A stretch of 64,000 nucleotides of DNA from Escherichia phage vB_EcoM-Ro157c2YLVW, in sequence record NC_050153.1. The stretch is one strand, 5' to 3'. Below, piece by piece: positions 15,697-46,916 of this stretch. The notes under the pieces are model-generated. The model was not told the origin of the DNA. It worked only from the letters and a program-made list of their open reading frames with translations, and did no database searches. Both the position numbers and the translations under genes were made by a program. Position 1 is the stretch's first letter. Each line of letters begins with the position of its first letter.

Positions 15697-18600
15697 TCAA
15701 CTCTCGCGTAGTCATTCATCAACGGATCATCAATTGACAGTGGTACCGTGCGCATAACGCCCGGCTGAGGCGTGCTGACCTTTACGACAGTTCCCTGGCC
15801 TTTCGCCGAGTCTTTGGTGTGCTCTTCAATCCTGGCAAGCAATGAGGTCATCTGCGCAAACAGCCGCTTCGTTTCACCATCAAGTGAAACGGTATTATCA
15901 GCCAACTGCATTGTCGGCTTGGCACCGGAGCCGCCAAGGTCACTAATAACCTGTCCGTCTATCTGCATACGACCGGTTGGTTGCTGCAAATCGTTGACGG
16001 CAGTCGTCACCTGGGACGTGGAGGCTGGTTCAGGCGCATTATTTTTCCGCATCCCCGGCGAGTTGCGGAGTTTATCGAATAGTCCATCAATCCCCATTTG
16101 TGCGCCGAGTTGGTCAAAGTAACTTGAGTTGCTGGCCACCGGACGCGCCTCTTCAACTGGCATCGGAGTATCAACATACACATTGCCAGCTGCTGTTGCG
16201 GTCCCCTTCCCTCGTGCACGTTCTTCGAGCGTTCCCTGAACGACTTCCCGACGCATACCCCGGCCATTCATGAATTTGTTGACCAGATCGTTAACGCCAA
16301 CAGCATTGCCGATTTTGTCTACCAAACCGCCTTTCTCAAACGGGCTATCACCAGGGGTAAACGCCAGACCAGTAGACTGATCGATAACGGCGTTATCAGG
16401 TAGTGGTTCCCTCACTCCATATTGCGCCCCACCCTGTGCTCCTGCCCCAGGTGTATAGATTTCACCACCTAAATAGCGAGCACGATGAGTATTGACCTTG
16501 ATCGCGTACTCACGGTTTTCCTTCGATAAGTCACCGGTGCCTTTTTTCCACTTATTAATAGTGCCAAACCCAGCGTTATATGCAGTGATGGCCTCGTTTA
16601 AGTCTCCATTGGCTTGCTTCAGATACTTGCTCATGAGAAGAGCCGCAGCTTCTGCCGATTTCACAGGATCAAACGATTCACCTTCAGCTAAGCCAGTCTC
16701 TTCACGAGCAATGCCCGTGAACTGAAACATTCCTAGAGCACCAGTTTGGGATTTTGCGTACGGATTACCACCAGATTCAGTTGCAGCAATCGCGTAAAGA
16801 GTGCCTTCAGGAAGACCATATTTATTCTCCAGTTCAGCAAAATACGGAGCTAACTTATCGAGATTTGCCTTACCTTCAGCGCCAAGGCTTCCGACTTTTA
16901 CATCTAAGTTGCCATTATTGTAGGTATCAGCAGCTTTCTGAATGTCATTCCTGGTGCCGGTGGTATTACGCGACGATGATGACGAGCTATTTTGTCCAAT
17001 AGCTGAATCAATTTTCCGCACCGCGCTATTGCCCGTTTCTACGGCATTTGCATTGATAATCTGATTGGCAGTTTCTTTAACTGTTTTATTGCTATCTTTC
17101 GCCGTGTCCAGTGCCGCATTTATCACGCGGGTAGCAATATTAGTCTGTTTAGCATCGGATTCAGTTTTAGAATCAGATGTCTCCTGGTGGCTATTAACCG
17201 GAGCTTTTAACTCTGGAGTGATTTCTTTTGCATTAGCCTCGCCGATCGGATTGGGTATTTTTGATACAATCATTGCCGCAGGGGTATTTTTAACGGCATC
17301 AACCGCTGCATCTAATGCTTTACCGGGTAAACTTTTAACCCCATCCCAAATATTACCAGCCGCCTCTTTAATGTGTTTTCCTGGGTTCTTAATGAAGTCA
17401 ATTGCACTATCAATTGCATCACTGAAAACCTGTTTCAGGTTATCGACAGTAAAGAAGTCTTTTATGGCATCCAGCTTTTCAAGCAACTTATTAGATGTAT
17501 CGCTAAACCATGCTGAAACAGCATCACCAATCTTTGCTGTGTAATCATCGAACTTGGTAGAAATGGTGTCGCCAAGGTTAGAAATATATGTTTCTAAGTT
17601 GGTAACCCCACTATCAATGGCCTGGGCAATACTTTCCGTCGAAAATGATTGCAACATATTGCCGATATCCTCAAATCCAAGTGATTTGAGAACATCACCA
17701 ATAGCACTGCTAATACCAGATACCAGTCCCCCCATATCGAGAACATTGGCTAACGTATAAGCGGCTTTTTGCTGGAATGATGGATCTTGTCCTGATTTAA
17801 GCCCAAACGCTCGACGTTGCGCTTCTGTATCATTCCAACCGGTTACCGCATCATAAATACCTCCAGCCACTGTGCCGACTAGGGGAATTGCGCGTAACGC
17901 CCCTTTACCAACTGCCTTTAATCCAAGTTTACCTGCTGCCCGGGCAGCCAAATCTCCGCCTTCATGGGCGAGAGTCTTCTTGCCACCACCGCGTAGCATT
18001 CCTACAAGTTTCTTTGCCCCCAGAGCGCCAAAAGCGAGTGCTCCAGCTTTTTTCAGCATGCCACGCCCCATTAACAACGACGCGACGCCACCGGCCCCCT
18101 TCCCTAACAGGCTAAATAGTTTGGACAGCAAGCCGCCCTTCTTTTTACCGGTGTTTTTGGCTATCTGATCAAGGGCGCGGAGAATCTTGTCATTGCCCTC
18201 TTTAATTTCGCTGGTCTGCTCCTGAAGTTCCTGAACCGTCCGTTTTTGGGTGTTAACCTGAACGACATCGGCACTATTTTGCGATTTACGCCTAAAAAAA
18301 CCTTTTCTACGGCTGTTATCGTCATTGCCACGAATCACATCGGCAATAGACTTTCTGGCACCATTAAGCGATCCACCAACTTCTTTTGATATCCCGCCAA
18401 GCTCCTTCCCTGCTGCCCACAATGGACCAGCAACGGCATAACCTAACGCATCGACGGCACGAGTCTCTGAAGGGTTGCCTATGCCTTCAGCTACTTTTGA
18501 CAGTTTTTTTAATAAACCTGATTCAGCATTTAGACGCTCATCATCCTCTTTGCGCCTGGCCTTTTCAGCACGTTCAGCACGGGCATCTTCCGCTGCGGCC

Positions 18601-43400: not shown

Positions 43401-43753
43401 AAGGGCGGTCTGAGTTTGTATGCGGTGATTTTGCAGCGGTGATTGAAGCTGCCGGAGAAGGAGATGTCATCTTTTGCGATCCGCCGTATGAACCGCTTCC
43501 AAATACAGAGGGATTCACGAACTATTCCGGTCATGACTTTAAGTTTGAAGAGCAAAAACGCCTGGTGTCTCTGTTGACGGATGCTCATCGTCGAGGTGCA
43601 AAGGTTCTCATTACTAACAGTGGCGCGCCAAACATCAGAGAGCTTTATCATGACAGTGGCTTCAGAGTGGAACCTCTTTTTGCCAGACGTTCTGTGTCTT
43701 GTAAGGGGGACACTCGAGGTGTAGCTCATGACGTTTTGGGTATATTGCTCTAA
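40466..43753 (+). CDS. dmt: bifunctional DNA methyltransferase: N-terminal C5-cytosine MTase (intein-interrupted) fused to C-terminal Dam-like N6-adenine MTase
   Basis: C5 motifs: motif IV GGTP|CQAFS (split by intein), ENV (VIVWENVPG), [13 protein letters not shown]; Dam domain from ~42945 with KWAGGK and DPPY motifs. Confidence 0.85.
40697..41719 (+). mobile_element. intein (341 aa) with LAGLIDADG homing-endonuclease domain, inserted at the catalytic Cys of the C5-MTase
   Basis: Begins with Cys (CFTAGHMV...), block [17 protein letters not shown] motifs [11 protein letters not shown] and [11 protein letters not shown], terminal ...NGAVVHN followed by Cys+1; excision restores GGTPCQAFS. Confidence 0.85.
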
Positions 43754-43760
43754 TAAATTT
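43744..43760 (+). promoter_or_regulatory. repressor operator (perfect ATTGCTCTAATAAATTT) overlapping the dmt stop codon
   Basis: Perfect 17-mer; downstream TGTAAT -10-like hexamer; heads the tRNA-plp-ban operon. Confidence 0.6.
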
Positions 43761-44425
43761 ATTAGTGTAATATCACCTCAATGAATCGTGATTTATAGAG
43801 CGATTTAGCTGTTAGCCGCGACAGGCGCGGCGGTAAGCATGGCTGGGCCTAGTCCTCCCAGACAAACCACCGAGTTGCCAGGTTGACCATGCGCCTAAGT
43901 GGCAACGCCGAAGTGCGTTACGAGCGTCCAGTTTGCCCATCTTCGGGTGGGCGTTTTTTTCAGGGTTTTCGTCATGGTTAGCGACTTTGCGGCGGTTTAG
44001 AAACTGACCATTAAAGTAAATGCAAACGATGATCTGATGATGGTAGCGGCCTAAGAAGCCAGATGCCATGGGGTATGAGTCGTCCCCCGTCAAAAAATCG
44101 ACCGCAGAGTGTCCCCGTCTGTGTATTAGGGAACGGGGAGGCACAACAGGTAAGGGCGCTGGTGTGATTAACCAGATGAACGAGAAGGGGCCATCTGTTG
44201 GTCAGCGTCCTTTCCTGTTGCGTTTTCTTTTCAGCGTAACAGCGGTGCTTAACAGCACTTTGGGTACAGTTCCACGAATTTACGGGTATATCCCGTCATG
44301 CTGAAGGCGCTAATCACGCTGGAAGCCAGGGTTATGCATCCCCTGTTACCGAATTGCAGCCAGGGCGCGGTGCGCCGAAAAGCATACGGAGGTGGAAGCC
44401 CTCGCCGGAGACGTACCCGGCAAGT

Positions 44426-44500
44426 GATGGTGTAGCTCAGCGGTAGAGCAGTTGGCTGTTAACCAACTGGTCGGTAGTTCGAATCCACCCACCATCGCCA
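44426..44500 (+). tRNA. tRNA-Asn (anticodon GTT)
   Basis: Cloverleaf: acceptor GATGGTG/CACCATC, D-arm GCTCAGCGGTAGAGC, anticodon loop CTGTTAA, T-loop TTCGAAT, encoded CCA. Confidence 0.75.
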
Positions 44501-44505
44501 CTTTA

Positions 44506-44592
44506 GGGGAGTTAGTCCGTAGGGGTAGCGGGGTAGACTGTAAATCTACTGTCATTGCGACTCGGGTGGTTCGACTCCATCACTCCCCACCA
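44506..44592 (+). tRNA. class II tRNA-like gene with GTA anticodon (tRNA-Tyr-like), atypical D-arm
   Basis: Acceptor GGGGAGT/ACTCCCC, anticodon stem-loop GTAGA-CTGTAAA-TCTAC, long variable arm hairpin, T-loop TTCGACT, encoded CCA; D-stem only 3 bp with 4-nt spacer. Confidence 0.55.
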
Positions 44593-44596
44593 CATT

Positions 44597-44672
44597 GCCG
44601 ATTTAGCTCAGTTGGTAGAGCAGTCGCTTTGTAAGCGAATGGTCAGCGGTTCGATCCCGTTAATCGGCACCA
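44597..44672 (+). tRNA. tRNA-Thr (anticodon TGT)
   Basis: Acceptor GCCGATT/AATCGGC, D-arm GCTCAGTTGGTAGAGC, anticodon loop TTTGTAA, T-loop TTCGATC, encoded CCA. Confidence 0.75.
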
Positions 44673-45532
44673 ACATAACAGGTAAGAGCATTCTCCCTTA
44701 TGGGGCCTGGCTTAAATGCATCGAGTGCTCTTACCGTTGTGATGAAGTGCAGATCTTAGAAGCAACCAGAAGATAAGCATCTGGCTTCACAACATAAACC
44801 GCAGGAACGACCAATAAACGGTAGTCCGTATGGAGAACACCCCGTTGAGGAAGAGGCCTGGCCGGAACCGTAACCGGCGACTGGTAATGTGTGTAAATGG
44901 AGCGAAATATGTGGGCGTTTAACGGGATACGGGTTGTAACAGCGATTATTAACGGCGAACTTAAGTATTCACGTTTCGAGACAAATGAACGTGATGGGAA
45001 ATGTATTGGTGTGCGGTTAGTAAGAGAATACGCATAACAACTACAACGTTGAGAACACTGGCGTAACGGGGTCATATCCCAATCTACGAATAAATGTTGC
45101 GTTGCCGCGTGACAACCAGTGTTCTCAACATTGTGGTGAATGCACAGGCTGATGTGCCGCAACTACAGTAGTGCGCGCTTTGCGGGGCTTGCTACAACCC
45201 TGTGTCGGAGTTCAGCACCGACCATCACAGTTTGATTCTCTGGCATGAGCATAACGCTGAAATAAGTCCAGTCTGGTGCGGTCTGATCACCCGCCGTTAG
45301 CTCCACGAAACGGAGCACGTAACAGGTAAGAGCATTCTCCTGTAACAATCTACAGGTCCACCAAGAATGCTCTTTCCGTTGCGGTGAATGCGGCTAAGCG
45401 CACGCGGGGAAATGGTTATATCTGTCCATTATTTCTCCTTGTTTCCACGTCCACGGTGGATAACCAGCCAAAGGACACCGGGAGGAACCCGGCACCGCAG
45501 CTTTTTTATTCGTTAAATAATGGAGTGAGAGG

Positions 45533-45769
45533 ATGCAGAACAATCCGAACAAATGTCGAACGCTATGGGTGCGGTTATATATTTATGCCGTCCTCTGTTT
45601 GATTGTGTCACTGGTTCTGTATGTTTGGCTTTTGCCAAATATGATCTCATCTAACAGCACAATACTTGTATTGTTGGGAGTCCTTCTCGCGCTCATTTAC
45701 CCGGCTTTCGCAGTAGTCTTTTTTCGTGAAAAAACCAGGAAATTAATTAATGAAAAAAACGTTGATTAG
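45533..45769 (+). CDS. small membrane protein (two TM helices)
   Basis: 78-aa ORF upstream of and overlapping the SPFH lipoprotein gene. Confidence 0.5.
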   Translation: MQNNPNKCRTLWVRLYIYAVLCLIVSLVLYVWLLPNMISSNSTILVLLGVLLALIYPAFAVVFFREKTRKLINEKNVD

Positions 45770-46577
45770 TGCAGCGATTATTTTGGGTTCTTTATGTCTG
45801 ACCGGATGCGATCGGGTAGAGCCAGGTAACGTAGGGATCAAAGTAAATAAGCTGGGGGATGATAAAGGTATCGGTGAAGTAGTTGGCGTTGGTCGCTACT
45901 GGACAGGCTTGAATACTGAAGTTTATATCTTCCCGACCTTTAAGCAAATGAAGACATACGATGAGCCGTTCAGCTTCCAGATGAGCGACGGAACAACCAT
46001 TGGTTACCACATCGGCGTAGCCTACAAGGTTGATCCAGCAAAAGTCACAACGGTATTTCAGACCTATCGCAAAGGTGTAGATGATATTACTGATACCGAT
46101 CTACGCCAGAAGGTTGCAGATGCTCTGAACCGATTAGCCAGCAAAATGACCACCGACAAATTTATCGACGGTGGCAAATCTGAATTGCTTGATGCAGCCC
46201 TTAAAGACATTCAGGAAGAAATGACGCCAATCGGCATTCAGGTGATGAGCCTCTCTTATGTAGGTAAGCCAGAATACCCGCCAACAGTTATTGACAGTAT
46301 TAACGCCAAAGTCACGGCAAACCAAAAAACCCTGCAACGCGAGCAAGAGGTCAAACAACGTGAAGCAGAGGCCAACATGCTGCGCGCGGAAGCTGCCGGA
46401 CAGGCTGATGCTATTCGCACAAAAGCCCAGGCCGAAGCTGATGCCATTCGTTTACGTGGTGAAGCTCTGCGCCAGAACCCCGGTGTTATGGACTTGGAAG
46501 CGATCAACAAATGGAACGGTACATTACCGCAGTATATGACCAGTAATACCGCTGTTCCGTTTGTTCCGGTGAAATAA
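45750..46577 (+). CDS. SPFH/band-7 (prohibitin-like) domain lipoprotein
   Basis: Lipobox LCLTGC after signal peptide MKKTLISAAIILGS; SPFH-like core followed by Ala/Gln/Glu-rich coiled coil. Confidence 0.65.
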   Translation: MKKTLISAAIILGSLCLTGCDRVEPGNVGIKVNKLGDDKGIGEVVGVGRYWTGLNTEVYIFPTFKQMKTYDEPFSFQMSDGTTIGYHIGVAYKVDPAKVTTVFQTYRKGVDDITDTDLRQKVADALNRLASKMTTDKFIDGGKSELLDAALKDIQEEMTPIGIQVMSLSYVGKPEYPPTVIDSINAKVTANQKTLQREQEVKQREAEANMLRAEAAGQADAIRTKAQAEADAIRLRGEALRQNPGVMDLEAINKWNGTLPQYMTSNTAVPFVPVK

Positions 46578-46604
46578 AAGCGTAAGCAAAATTGGCAGTA
46601 ATCC

Positions 46605-46680
46605 GGCCCTTTAGCTCAGTGGTTAGAGCTGGCGACTCATAATCGCACGGTCACCGGTTCAAGTCCGGTAGGGGCCACCA
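46605..46680 (+). tRNA. tRNA with CAT anticodon, Ile2 (lysidine)-type by resemblance to E. coli ileX; elongator Met not excluded
   Basis: Acceptor GGCCCTT/AGGGGCC, D-arm GCTCAGTGGTTAGAGC, anticodon arm GGCGACTCATAATCGC, T-loop TTCAAGT, encoded CCA. Confidence 0.7.
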
Positions 46681-46916
46681 TATTTGGTTGTAACACGGCG
46701 TCTGGCACATGCGTCGTTAGCGGTCTGGTGACGTTAAAGGGGTAACCTTTCCCCTAGCTCAGGCAACAAACCAGGTAGCCGGAATGTGCAAGCCCCGTTC
46801 ATAGCGTCGGACTGCGGATTCACCATCCTGGCGATTCGGTGTGACAGCCGGGAAGAGTCCGGCGCATTAATCCTGATTTTCTGGTGATGACTCATATCGT
46901 TAGGAGTGATTTGAGT

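Follow-up and report, generated by a model that had tools for sequence, protein, structure and literature searches.

What do the related inverted repeats that follow the tRNA genes of a phage-plasmid do? The question is raised by Escherichia phage vB_EcoM-Ro157c2YLVW (sequence record NC_050153.1), of which a stretch of 64,000 nucleotides (nt) was analysed as a whole and is here called the window. A preliminary description, made from the letters of this stretch, had noted three imperfect inverted repeats with a shared 3' tail in the spacer between the tRNA genes and plp, and had suggested that they are RNA processing sites, small RNAs or protein-binding sites. These repeats belong to a family of four hairpins in the window, H0 to H3, and we propose that they are probably processing stem-loops for ribonuclease III (RNase III), which would punctuate a polycistronic transcript of tRNAs, small RNAs and mRNAs.

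Hairpins H0-H3 and their family

The three inverted repeats and their common 3' sequence were found within 1-2 nt of the positions given for them. A repeat finder returned a three-copy family of 24 nt at 44723, 45117 and 45365 (75-83% identity; inverted-repeat pairs I1, I6 and I12) and a 24-nt 5' arm that copies 1 and 3 share at 96% identity. The count of three is one short, as a fourth copy, H0, is located upstream of the tRNAs, 203 nt from tRNA-Asn. All four hairpins have stems of 18-22 base pairs (bp) that rest on a CACAAC/GUUGUG base and often bulge out one A; their loops are mutually unrelated. In H0 the stem pairs CAACAGGUAAGGGCGCUGG with CAGCGUCCUUUCCUGUUG and is followed by a U-rich run, GCGUUUUCUUUUC; its fold has a free energy of -45.3 kcal/mol on the + strand (z -5.2) and of -32.9 on the minus strand. 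H1 begins at the base right after the CCA of tRNA-Thr; its base is 6 bp long (CAUAAC/GUUGUG), its upper stem 13 bp (GGUAAGAGCAUUC/GAGUGCUCUUACC), and one A is bulged. The arms of H2, CUACAACGUUGAGAACACUGG and CCAGUGUUCUCAACAUUGUGG, are 22 nt long and 91% complementary (pair I1), enclose a branched loop of 54 nt and fold at -50.4 kcal/mol (z -6.1); across H1 to H3 the z-scores against shuffles range from -4.7 to -6.1.

The tail needs to be viewed with some care. The 14-nt motif alone is not above chance in the window (3 matches at up to two mismatches, 3.18 expected), but all three matches sit exactly at the 3' feet of hairpins. The 5'-arm motif is enriched, with 10 occurrences against 2.1 expected (0/100 shuffles). 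Moreover, part of what was described as a conserved tail, although present, supplies the 5' half of another, small hairpin, found at 45142-45157 after H2 and at 45389-45402 after H3, where it reads UGCG GCUAAG CGCA. The motif GCGCAGGCUGAUGCGC of the former also follows other hairpins of the family.

A covariance model, R1, was built from 34 variants, and its training set held the window copies or sequences nearly identical to them. On the + and minus strands, respectively, it scores 43.6 and 22.5 bits at H1, 41.7 and 17.7 at H3, and 20.8 and 8.2 at H0 (E-values from 8e-9 to 4.5e-3). H2 gives only a partial match of 12.6 bits, and its assignment to the family rests on architecture, on the tail and on intermediate arm types present in SSU5-like plasmids. 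In a scan of the whole window family hairpins are confined to 44142-45383, shuffled windows returning about 1.2 weak hits. No Rfam family covers the hairpins, which draw only the weak miRNA-precursor matches typical of any long hairpin. The Rfam tRNA model (RF00005) matches the four true tRNAs and, at E <=5, neither the hairpins nor the segments between them. The segment 45130-45232 was considered as a pseudo-tRNA and rejected: it folds like a cloverleaf, with a z-score of -0.57 and no tRNA-model hit. Some hairpin loops contain a T-arm-like sequence, GGUUCGAAUCC, at inconsistent positions within the loop; GGGUUCGAAUCCC and GUCUGUUCGAUUCAGAC are examples (L002 2380-2467, which is the P1 hairpin after tRNA-Thr; L018; L012), and such sequences are possibly remnants of tRNA genes.

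How far does the family extend? The motif search in relatives that had been recommended recovered it in P1-like and SSU5-like phage-plasmids and in lambda, a breadth that the preliminary description had missed. SSU5-like phage-plasmids of E. coli, Klebsiella and Cronobacter hold hairpins beside tRNA-Asn, Tyr, Thr and Ser, and the 3' arm is common to 120 viral contigs. The lambda copy (J02459, 44785-44862) lies 7 nt beyond the 6S RNA terminator tR', in the late leader. Other lambdoid phages have the hairpins either between Q and the holin gene or in an interval from repressor to exonuclease with the look of a leftward early operon. At least 22 types can be told apart by loop content. Their common architecture is the 6-bp CACAAC/GUUGUG base, usually one bulged A, and an upper stem of 13-15 bp of two kinds, GGUAAGRGCAUU/AAUGCYCUUACC or GUUGAGRCCAC/GUGGYCUCAAC. 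Stems measure 18-22 bp with at most one bulge or mismatch, and loops, unrelated to one another, 25-100 nt. In all contexts seen (P1, SSU5-like, lambda, Q-to-holin, repressor-to-exonuclease) the hairpins are co-oriented with transcription. No member was found in the tRNA region of phage 933W or in the DLP12 prophage. We found no earlier description of the hairpin family as such, or of its presence in P1, SSU5-like elements and lambda.

Table 1. Positions of the hairpins and of neighbouring features in the window.
Feature	Position	Strand	Basis or remark
Pban promoter and divalent C1 operator (ATTGCUCUAAUAAAUUU)	43744..43775	+	98% identity to annotated P1
dicF-like element	43815..43960	+	Qin alignment, terminator scan, P1 annotation
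Hairpin H0	44143..44222	+	inverted repeat I3, fold, covariance model R1
tRNA cluster Asn(GUU)-Tyr(GUA)-Thr(UGU)	44426..44672	+	ARAGORN, Rfam tRNA, feature maps
Hairpin H1 (copy 1 of the preliminary description)	44673..44741	+	repeat finder, fold, feature maps, model R1
161-nt insertion directly 5' of H2	44879..45039	+	pairwise BLAST map
Hairpin H2 (copy 2)	45041..45135	+	inverted repeat I1, fold, architecture
Small hairpin GCACA-GGCUGA-UGUGC	45142..45157	+	sequence, fold; distal part of the tail after H2
Hairpin H3 (copy 3)	45317..45383	+	inverted repeat I6, fold, model R1
STnc100/PasD-like structured RNA	45380..45499	+	Rfam RF02076, fold; begins in the H3 tail
plp- and upl-equivalent open reading frames	44731-45162 and 45163-45348	-	antisense to structured RNA

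Pairing and strand asymmetry

Are these structures maintained as DNA or as RNA? For covariation we used 34 distinct arm pairs, which are related to each other and had been collected by requiring a stable duplex. Within this set 96.5% of alignment cells are paired compared with 85.5% in shuffles (0/500), a percentage that is inflated by the way the variants were selected; slid-alignment controls give 36-55%. The double changes and the strand asymmetry are inflated neither by that selection nor by the relatedness of the variants. Both sides have changed in 10 of the 20 pairs, and the covariation score is 0.392 versus 0.185 in shuffles (0/500). G·U pairs number 54 versus 13 A·C mismatches, and in 20 of 22 loop types the + strand fold is the more stable one. 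Because covariation, the G·U/A·C and fold asymmetries and the strand-biased model scores point the same way, we interpret the family as selected as RNA in the direction of transcription, which in the window is set by the location of Pban on the + strand. Binding sites for proteins on DNA, one of the earlier suggestions, are disfavoured by the strand asymmetry of G·U pairs and by the compensatory changes. RNA processing sites, another of them, are favoured by selection on the transcribed strand, by the adjoining tRNA 3' ends and by a mapped RNase III site in the Qin prophage that is described below.

Several other RNA-level readings of the arms were tried and rejected. A 3' arm might pair with the 5' arm of the next hairpin, but the compensatory changes are specific to partners within one hairpin. 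The boxA-like sequence of the 3' arm (UGCUCUUACC) is paired, and its variants GUACCCUUACC, GUGUUCUCAAC and GUGGCCUCAAC keep the pairing and not the boxA core. Readings of GUGAUGA...CUGA as C/D-box, k-turn or hammerhead fail since these features are not conserved among copies.

It could also be argued that the hairpins terminate or attenuate transcription, or act as anti-termination elements in the RNA, and so govern read-through to ban. The U-rich run after H0 and the proximity of the lambda copy to tR' are in keeping with such a role. A U-tract is, however, absent from H1-H3 and from most family members; a terminator scan of the + strand leader upstream of the SPFH genes returned only the DicF-like terminator at 43934-43960 and none of H0-H3; and a single stem with a variable loop is unlike put or nut elements. 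We regard this explanation as very improbable.

RNase III as the candidate processing enzyme

What kind of processing might the hairpins serve? The first clue is their position. Within clusters, tRNAs are 2-5 nt apart, and the last tRNA of a cluster has a hairpin 0-3 nt after its CCA. A hairpin no more than 3 nt after CCA accompanies 89 of 90 scorable tRNA-Thr genes, 21 tRNA-Asn and 21 tRNA-Ser; as the loci were ascertained via the hairpin motif, these frequencies are not unbiased, while the zero gap is robust. A stem that starts right after CCA leaves no single-stranded trailer for RNase E, so that tRNA maturation would need an endonuclease acting on double-stranded RNA to open it. Near-continuous stems of 20-22 bp are of the size cut by the host RNase III and hence are candidate substrates.

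The second clue comes from Qin, a prophage of E. coli K-12. A hairpin between ydfC and dicF (L135 19173-19258) has the same architecture, in that its stem, about 22 bp with a bulge, stands on a CCAUAAC/GUUGUGG base, and folds at -35.6 kcal/mol on the + strand versus -30.0 on the minus strand. A 190-nt DicF species is lost in Δrnc cells (Ragunathan et al. 2023, bioRxiv 10.1101/2023.04.14.536235, confirming Faubladier et al. 1990), and its 5' end was mapped to a cut that RNase III makes in the dicBp transcript between +813 and +814. The same work reports that upstream ydfA transcripts vanish in Δrnc, which its authors read as stabilisation by processing; this fits a stabilising stem remnant. Two independent calibrations place the Qin cut at about 19251/19252 of L135, or 1,649,250/1,649,251 of K-12, between CUUCCG and GUUGUGG, the point on the 3' strand where base and upper stem meet. 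One counts from the predicted dicBp promoter (TTGACC, 17 nt, TAATCT; -10 at 18426-18431) with a start near 18439; because that start is a prediction, the placement of +813/+814 is uncertain by about 2 nt. The other begins where the terminator U-run ends (19441) and goes back 190 nt.

We tie the Qin hairpin to the family by its architecture, by its identical base and flank, and by an intermediate in phage cdtI. The cdtI hairpin occupies the Qin-equivalent position, upstream of a flank 95.7% identical to that of Qin, and scores 26.3 bits (E 1e-4) in R1 from outside the training set. Like the family, the Qin dicBF site is a long hairpin whose bulged stem, about 22 bp, has CAUAAC/GUUGUG as its base and which is set in an untranslated stretch of a repressor-controlled phage operon directly upstream of a small-RNA module. 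It differs in that its upper stem has diverged and in that it precedes DicF rather than following a tRNA. As far as we found, the site has no earlier description as one copy of a repeated family. Qin carries a second hairpin on the minus strand, one that R1 scores as a family member (L135 11158-11227; 23.1 bits, E 0.0012), between cspB and essQ of K-12, with the tail GUGGUGAAGUGC, in a late-operon leader downstream of the Q homologue ydfT. In phage phiSTEC1589-Stx1c (L137 1225-1380) a Qin-type hairpin is directly followed by a different terminator-ended small-RNA-like sequence and then by the shared GUGAUGCGGUGAAUGCGGCUCAGCGCACGCGG, an arrangement that suggests a recurrent module of hairpin, small RNA and terminator.

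By analogy with the mapped rnc-dependent cut in Qin, we infer cleavage at H0-H3 of the window, with its exact positions and its consequences for tRNA maturation. The hairpins would act as cis-acting RNA elements in the transcript that leads from Pban through modules of tRNAs and small RNAs to ban. The proposed RNase III cuts fall on both strands where the 6-bp base (CACAAC/GUUGUG) meets the upper stem, at the bulge junction, and would together excise the upper stem-loop. The upstream RNA, such as tRNA-Thr, would keep a 3' trailer of about 10 nt that exonucleases may trim to CCA. The downstream RNA would receive a 5'-monophosphate end starting GUUGYGRUGAA, which is the conserved tail noticed at the outset. 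Modelled on Qin, the predicted cuts on the 3' strand fall near 44216/17 in H0, 44735/44736 in H1, 45129/45130 in H2 and 45377/45378 in H3; on the 5' strand of H1 a cut is predicted near 44682/44683, giving a 10-nt trailer on tRNA-Thr. For the lambda copy the 3'-strand cut is predicted at 44856/44857 of J02459. With the cuts placed as in Qin, the window position being extrapolated, the two pairs between the staggered cuts are G-C in 33 of 34 and in 20 of 34 variants. A preference of E. coli RNase III for G-C or C-G at these positions in vivo has been reported (PMC6212723). By such cleavage the array may divide a single polycistronic precursor into individual tRNAs, small RNAs and mRNAs.

One downstream product of this processing could be the RNA that directly follows H3, upstream of the genes for a 78-amino-acid protein and an SPFH lipoprotein, and that resembles the prophage small RNAs STnc100 and PasD. 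This segment, which starts in the H3 tail, matches positions 31-147 of the STnc100 model (RF02076), including UGGUGAAU and the closing helix, at 38 bits, below the gathering score of 47 (E 5e-6 to 7e-7). It contains the closing helix UGCGGUG/CACCGCA and four internal hairpins, then a U-run, and folds with a z-score of -3.2. This likeness concerns the downstream module and not the hairpins themselves, over which there is no match. The earlier suggestion of small RNAs is partly right, for segments between hairpins, of which this one is STnc100/PasD-like, rather than for the hairpins; upstream there is a DicF-precursor-like element. A full STnc100 copy is present after stxB in phage 933W, with no family hairpin upstream of it.

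Might the hairpins, instead, remain uncleaved and act as structural spacers or protective stem-loops, shielding RNA against 3' exonucleases or RNase E or blocking the loading of Rho? Hairpins in long untranslated stretches of an operon, with structure conserved at the RNA level, would suit such a function, and the loss of the ydfA transcript in Δrnc cells suits a protective hairpin remnant. On the other hand, tRNA-Thr, tRNA-Ser or tRNA-Asn would be kept from maturing by an uncleaved hairpin of 70-140 nt fused to its CCA, stems of 20-22 bp with near-perfect pairing should be RNase III substrates, and the Qin counterpart is cleaved. We consider purely protective hairpins unlikely, although less so than any of the other alternatives weighed here.

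Processing by RNase III has parallels in well-known systems. The early region of phage T7 contains RNase III signals (R0.3-R1.3), and RNase III takes part in the processing of the T4 tRNA cluster. These signals resemble the family as related hairpins between genes of a phage polycistronic transcript, whose cleavage separates the RNAs and leaves stabilising stem remnants. T7 sites differ in having internal loops that give single cuts, and sequence similarity to the family is lacking; the family has near-continuous stems, abuts tRNA CCA ends and is common to unrelated temperate phages. The processing stems of 16S and 23S rRNA are likewise about 20 bp long, are cleaved by RNase III and release stable RNAs from an untranslated operon that contains tRNAs; the 23S stem (GUUGUGAGGUUAAGC/GCUUAACCUUACAAC) loosely resembles the family arms. 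The rrn stems enclose their product, whereas the products of the family would lie between local hairpins. Homology to the 5' end or processing stem of 23S was rejected, as BLAST against rrnB was not significant and only chance-level 10-mers were shared. Within 45389-45461 of the window, GCGGCUAAGCGCAC and CACGGUGGAU look to the eye like the opening 30 nt of 23S (GCGACUAAGCGUAC, CACGGUGGAU; rrlB, L133 342-375).

Several observations weigh against RNase III punctuation, besides the inflated pairing percentage and the predicted start behind the Qin cut. R1 finds no match to the Qin hairpin at E <=10, the two being too diverged. The primary sequence of the arms (GGUAAGRGCAUU) is strongly conserved, which RNase III does not require; there may be another constraint on the arms, for instance gene conversion between copies or a second protein. 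The tRNAs in the late leader of 933W are without these hairpins, which therefore are not obligatory for phage tRNA maturation. Finally, in the literature on the P1 ban operon and on RNase III in the lambda late leader we found no RNA-end or rnc data.

What would follow if the RNase III model were true? It would explain how tRNAs of P1-type and SSU5-type elements mature when their CCA ends are fused to long hairpins, and it would predict discrete small RNAs from the ban leader, a DicF-precursor-like one at about 43780-43960 and an STnc100-like one at about 45378-45505. It would also assign a function to an unannotated hairpin in the lambda late leader, would link the long-known DicF RNase III site to a wider family outside the coverage of Rfam, and would account concretely for the tRNA and small-RNA region being a mosaic hotspot. 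Basic concepts would stay unchanged, as RNase III punctuation of phage transcripts is classical.

The ban leader as a mosaic of modules

In which operon do the hairpins reside? Judged by its sequence, the window is a P1-like phage-plasmid, and Punavirus genomes match the region 43700-46700 at 95-98% identity. Alignment to annotated P1 gives, on the + strand, the order Pban, dicF-like element, H0, tRNA-Asn/Tyr/Thr and the hairpin interval, followed by a 78-amino-acid membrane protein, the SPFH lipoprotein, tRNA-Met(CAU) and the DnaB-like helicase gene ban. On this alignment, the hairpin interval falls within a long leader, for the most part untranslated, that belongs to the C1-controlled ban operon. 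The dicF-like element ends in a strong intrinsic terminator (43934-43953 plus U7) and, transcribed from Pban, would probably be a small RNA with a seed of its own; it gives no match to the Rfam DicF model. The homology of P1's 'dicF-like region' is with the RNase III-generated 190-nt precursor of DicF in Qin, over its 5' part, rather than with the 53-nt DicF; in the window element, about 75% identity over 99 nt is followed by a differing 3' end.

The preliminary description had seen no protein gene in the interval and had overlooked that P1 annotates two here, plp and upl. A reading that takes the repeats as incidental and the minus strand of the interval as coding for Plp and Upl deserves mention, given that both genes are annotated at this place in P1 and RCS47, and that the upl-like open reading frame (ORF) matches PHROG families, which were built from such annotations. 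A comparison of stop-to-stop ORFs of P1, P7, D6, SJ46, RCS47 and the window shows that the frames and termini of these genes differ. The plp frame acquires a different C- or N-terminus through the 161-nt insertion in the window, an extra module in RCS47, a shorter hairpin in P7 and a deletion in SJ46, and insertions or replacements of 161, 196 and 19 nt shift the plp termini in the window, RCS47, P7, D6 and SJ46. In P1, plp passes in antisense orientation across a hairpin and takes in 30 nt of tRNA-Thr. No PHROG is hit by the window's plp-like ORF, P7 was annotated with neither gene, and NCBI PGAP calls nothing under the H3 part (45300-45530, overlapping upl) in hundreds of E. coli plasmids. 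We give next to no credence to the coding interpretation, and from this comparison the plp and upl ORFs appear to be annotation artefacts; the RNase III model, if true, would argue for removing them from the P1 annotation.

The earlier verdict of no protein gene nonetheless has an exception. The 161-nt insertion, missing from six reference genomes (P1, P7, D6, SJ46, RCS47 and MH422554), contains a + strand ORF of 46 amino acids (44897-45037; MWAFNGIRVV...) with a GGAG ribosome-binding site. It matches phrog_8025, of unknown function, at E 9e-25, and by this match and its ribosome-binding site we take it as the sole convincing coding sequence in the hairpin interval.

Why is this leader so mosaic? 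The homology of the window with P1, P7, D6, SJ46 and RCS47 breaks at hairpins, one hairpin is found joined to differing upstream and downstream modules, and Qin and cdtI diverge exactly at GUUGUG. In all copies the arms are nearly identical and would therefore offer short homology patches for module swaps between phages. The simplest reading of the breakpoints is homologous recombination within the shared 20-25-nt arms, in which the role of the hairpins is probably passive.

A dedicated role in recombination can also be envisaged, with the hairpins serving at the DNA level as attC-like cassette boundaries or dedicated crossover sites that mobilise cassettes of tRNAs, small RNAs or ORFs. The coincidence of breakpoints with hairpins among P1, P7, D6, SJ46, RCS47, the window, Qin and cdtI, the occurrence of the same hairpin with different 5' and 3' flanks, ends of the form ..YAAC / GUUR.. 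that are loosely like the attC R''/R' cores, and loops that vary in length and sequence all lend themselves to this idea. Integron attC sites, too, span 50-140 nt as imperfect inverted repeats, conserved at their ..AAC/GTT.. ends, variable in the centre and positioned at cassette boundaries. The cores, however, match only in part (ACACAAC / GTTGTGA against RYYYAAC / GTTRRRY), and apart from one bulged A the stem is continuous, with neither the unpaired central spacer nor the extrahelical bases that characterise attC. The excess of G·U pairs on one strand, an RNA-type asymmetry, and the compensatory changes are unexpected for sites in double-stranded DNA; no integron integrase is present in the P1, lambda and SSU5 contexts inspected; and shared arms with ordinary homologous recombination suffice to produce the breakpoints. 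Such a specialised DNA function therefore seems to us decidedly improbable, if somewhat less so than termination.

RNase III signalling and passive exchange could be combined in one element. We speculate, as a tentative extension less probable than RNase III punctuation itself, that the hairpins are portable non-coding 'moron' boundary elements that unite an RNase III signal with homology for exchange, an RNA-level analogue of a cassette system. With similar caution, any inserted tRNA, small RNA or mini-ORF might then be excised from the host operon transcript, and modules might be exchanged among lambda-like, P1-like and SSU5-like phages.

The tRNA genes themselves add to the mosaic. In the window cluster, whose intergenic spacers are 4-5 nt, tRNA-Tyr(GUA) (44501-44596) is inserted between tRNA-Asn and tRNA-Thr. 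The order Asn-Tyr-Thr is also found in SSU5-like E. coli plasmids (L007, L049), with Arg-Tyr-Thr in L012. These arrangements indicate that tRNA modules are exchanged between unrelated phage-plasmid families.

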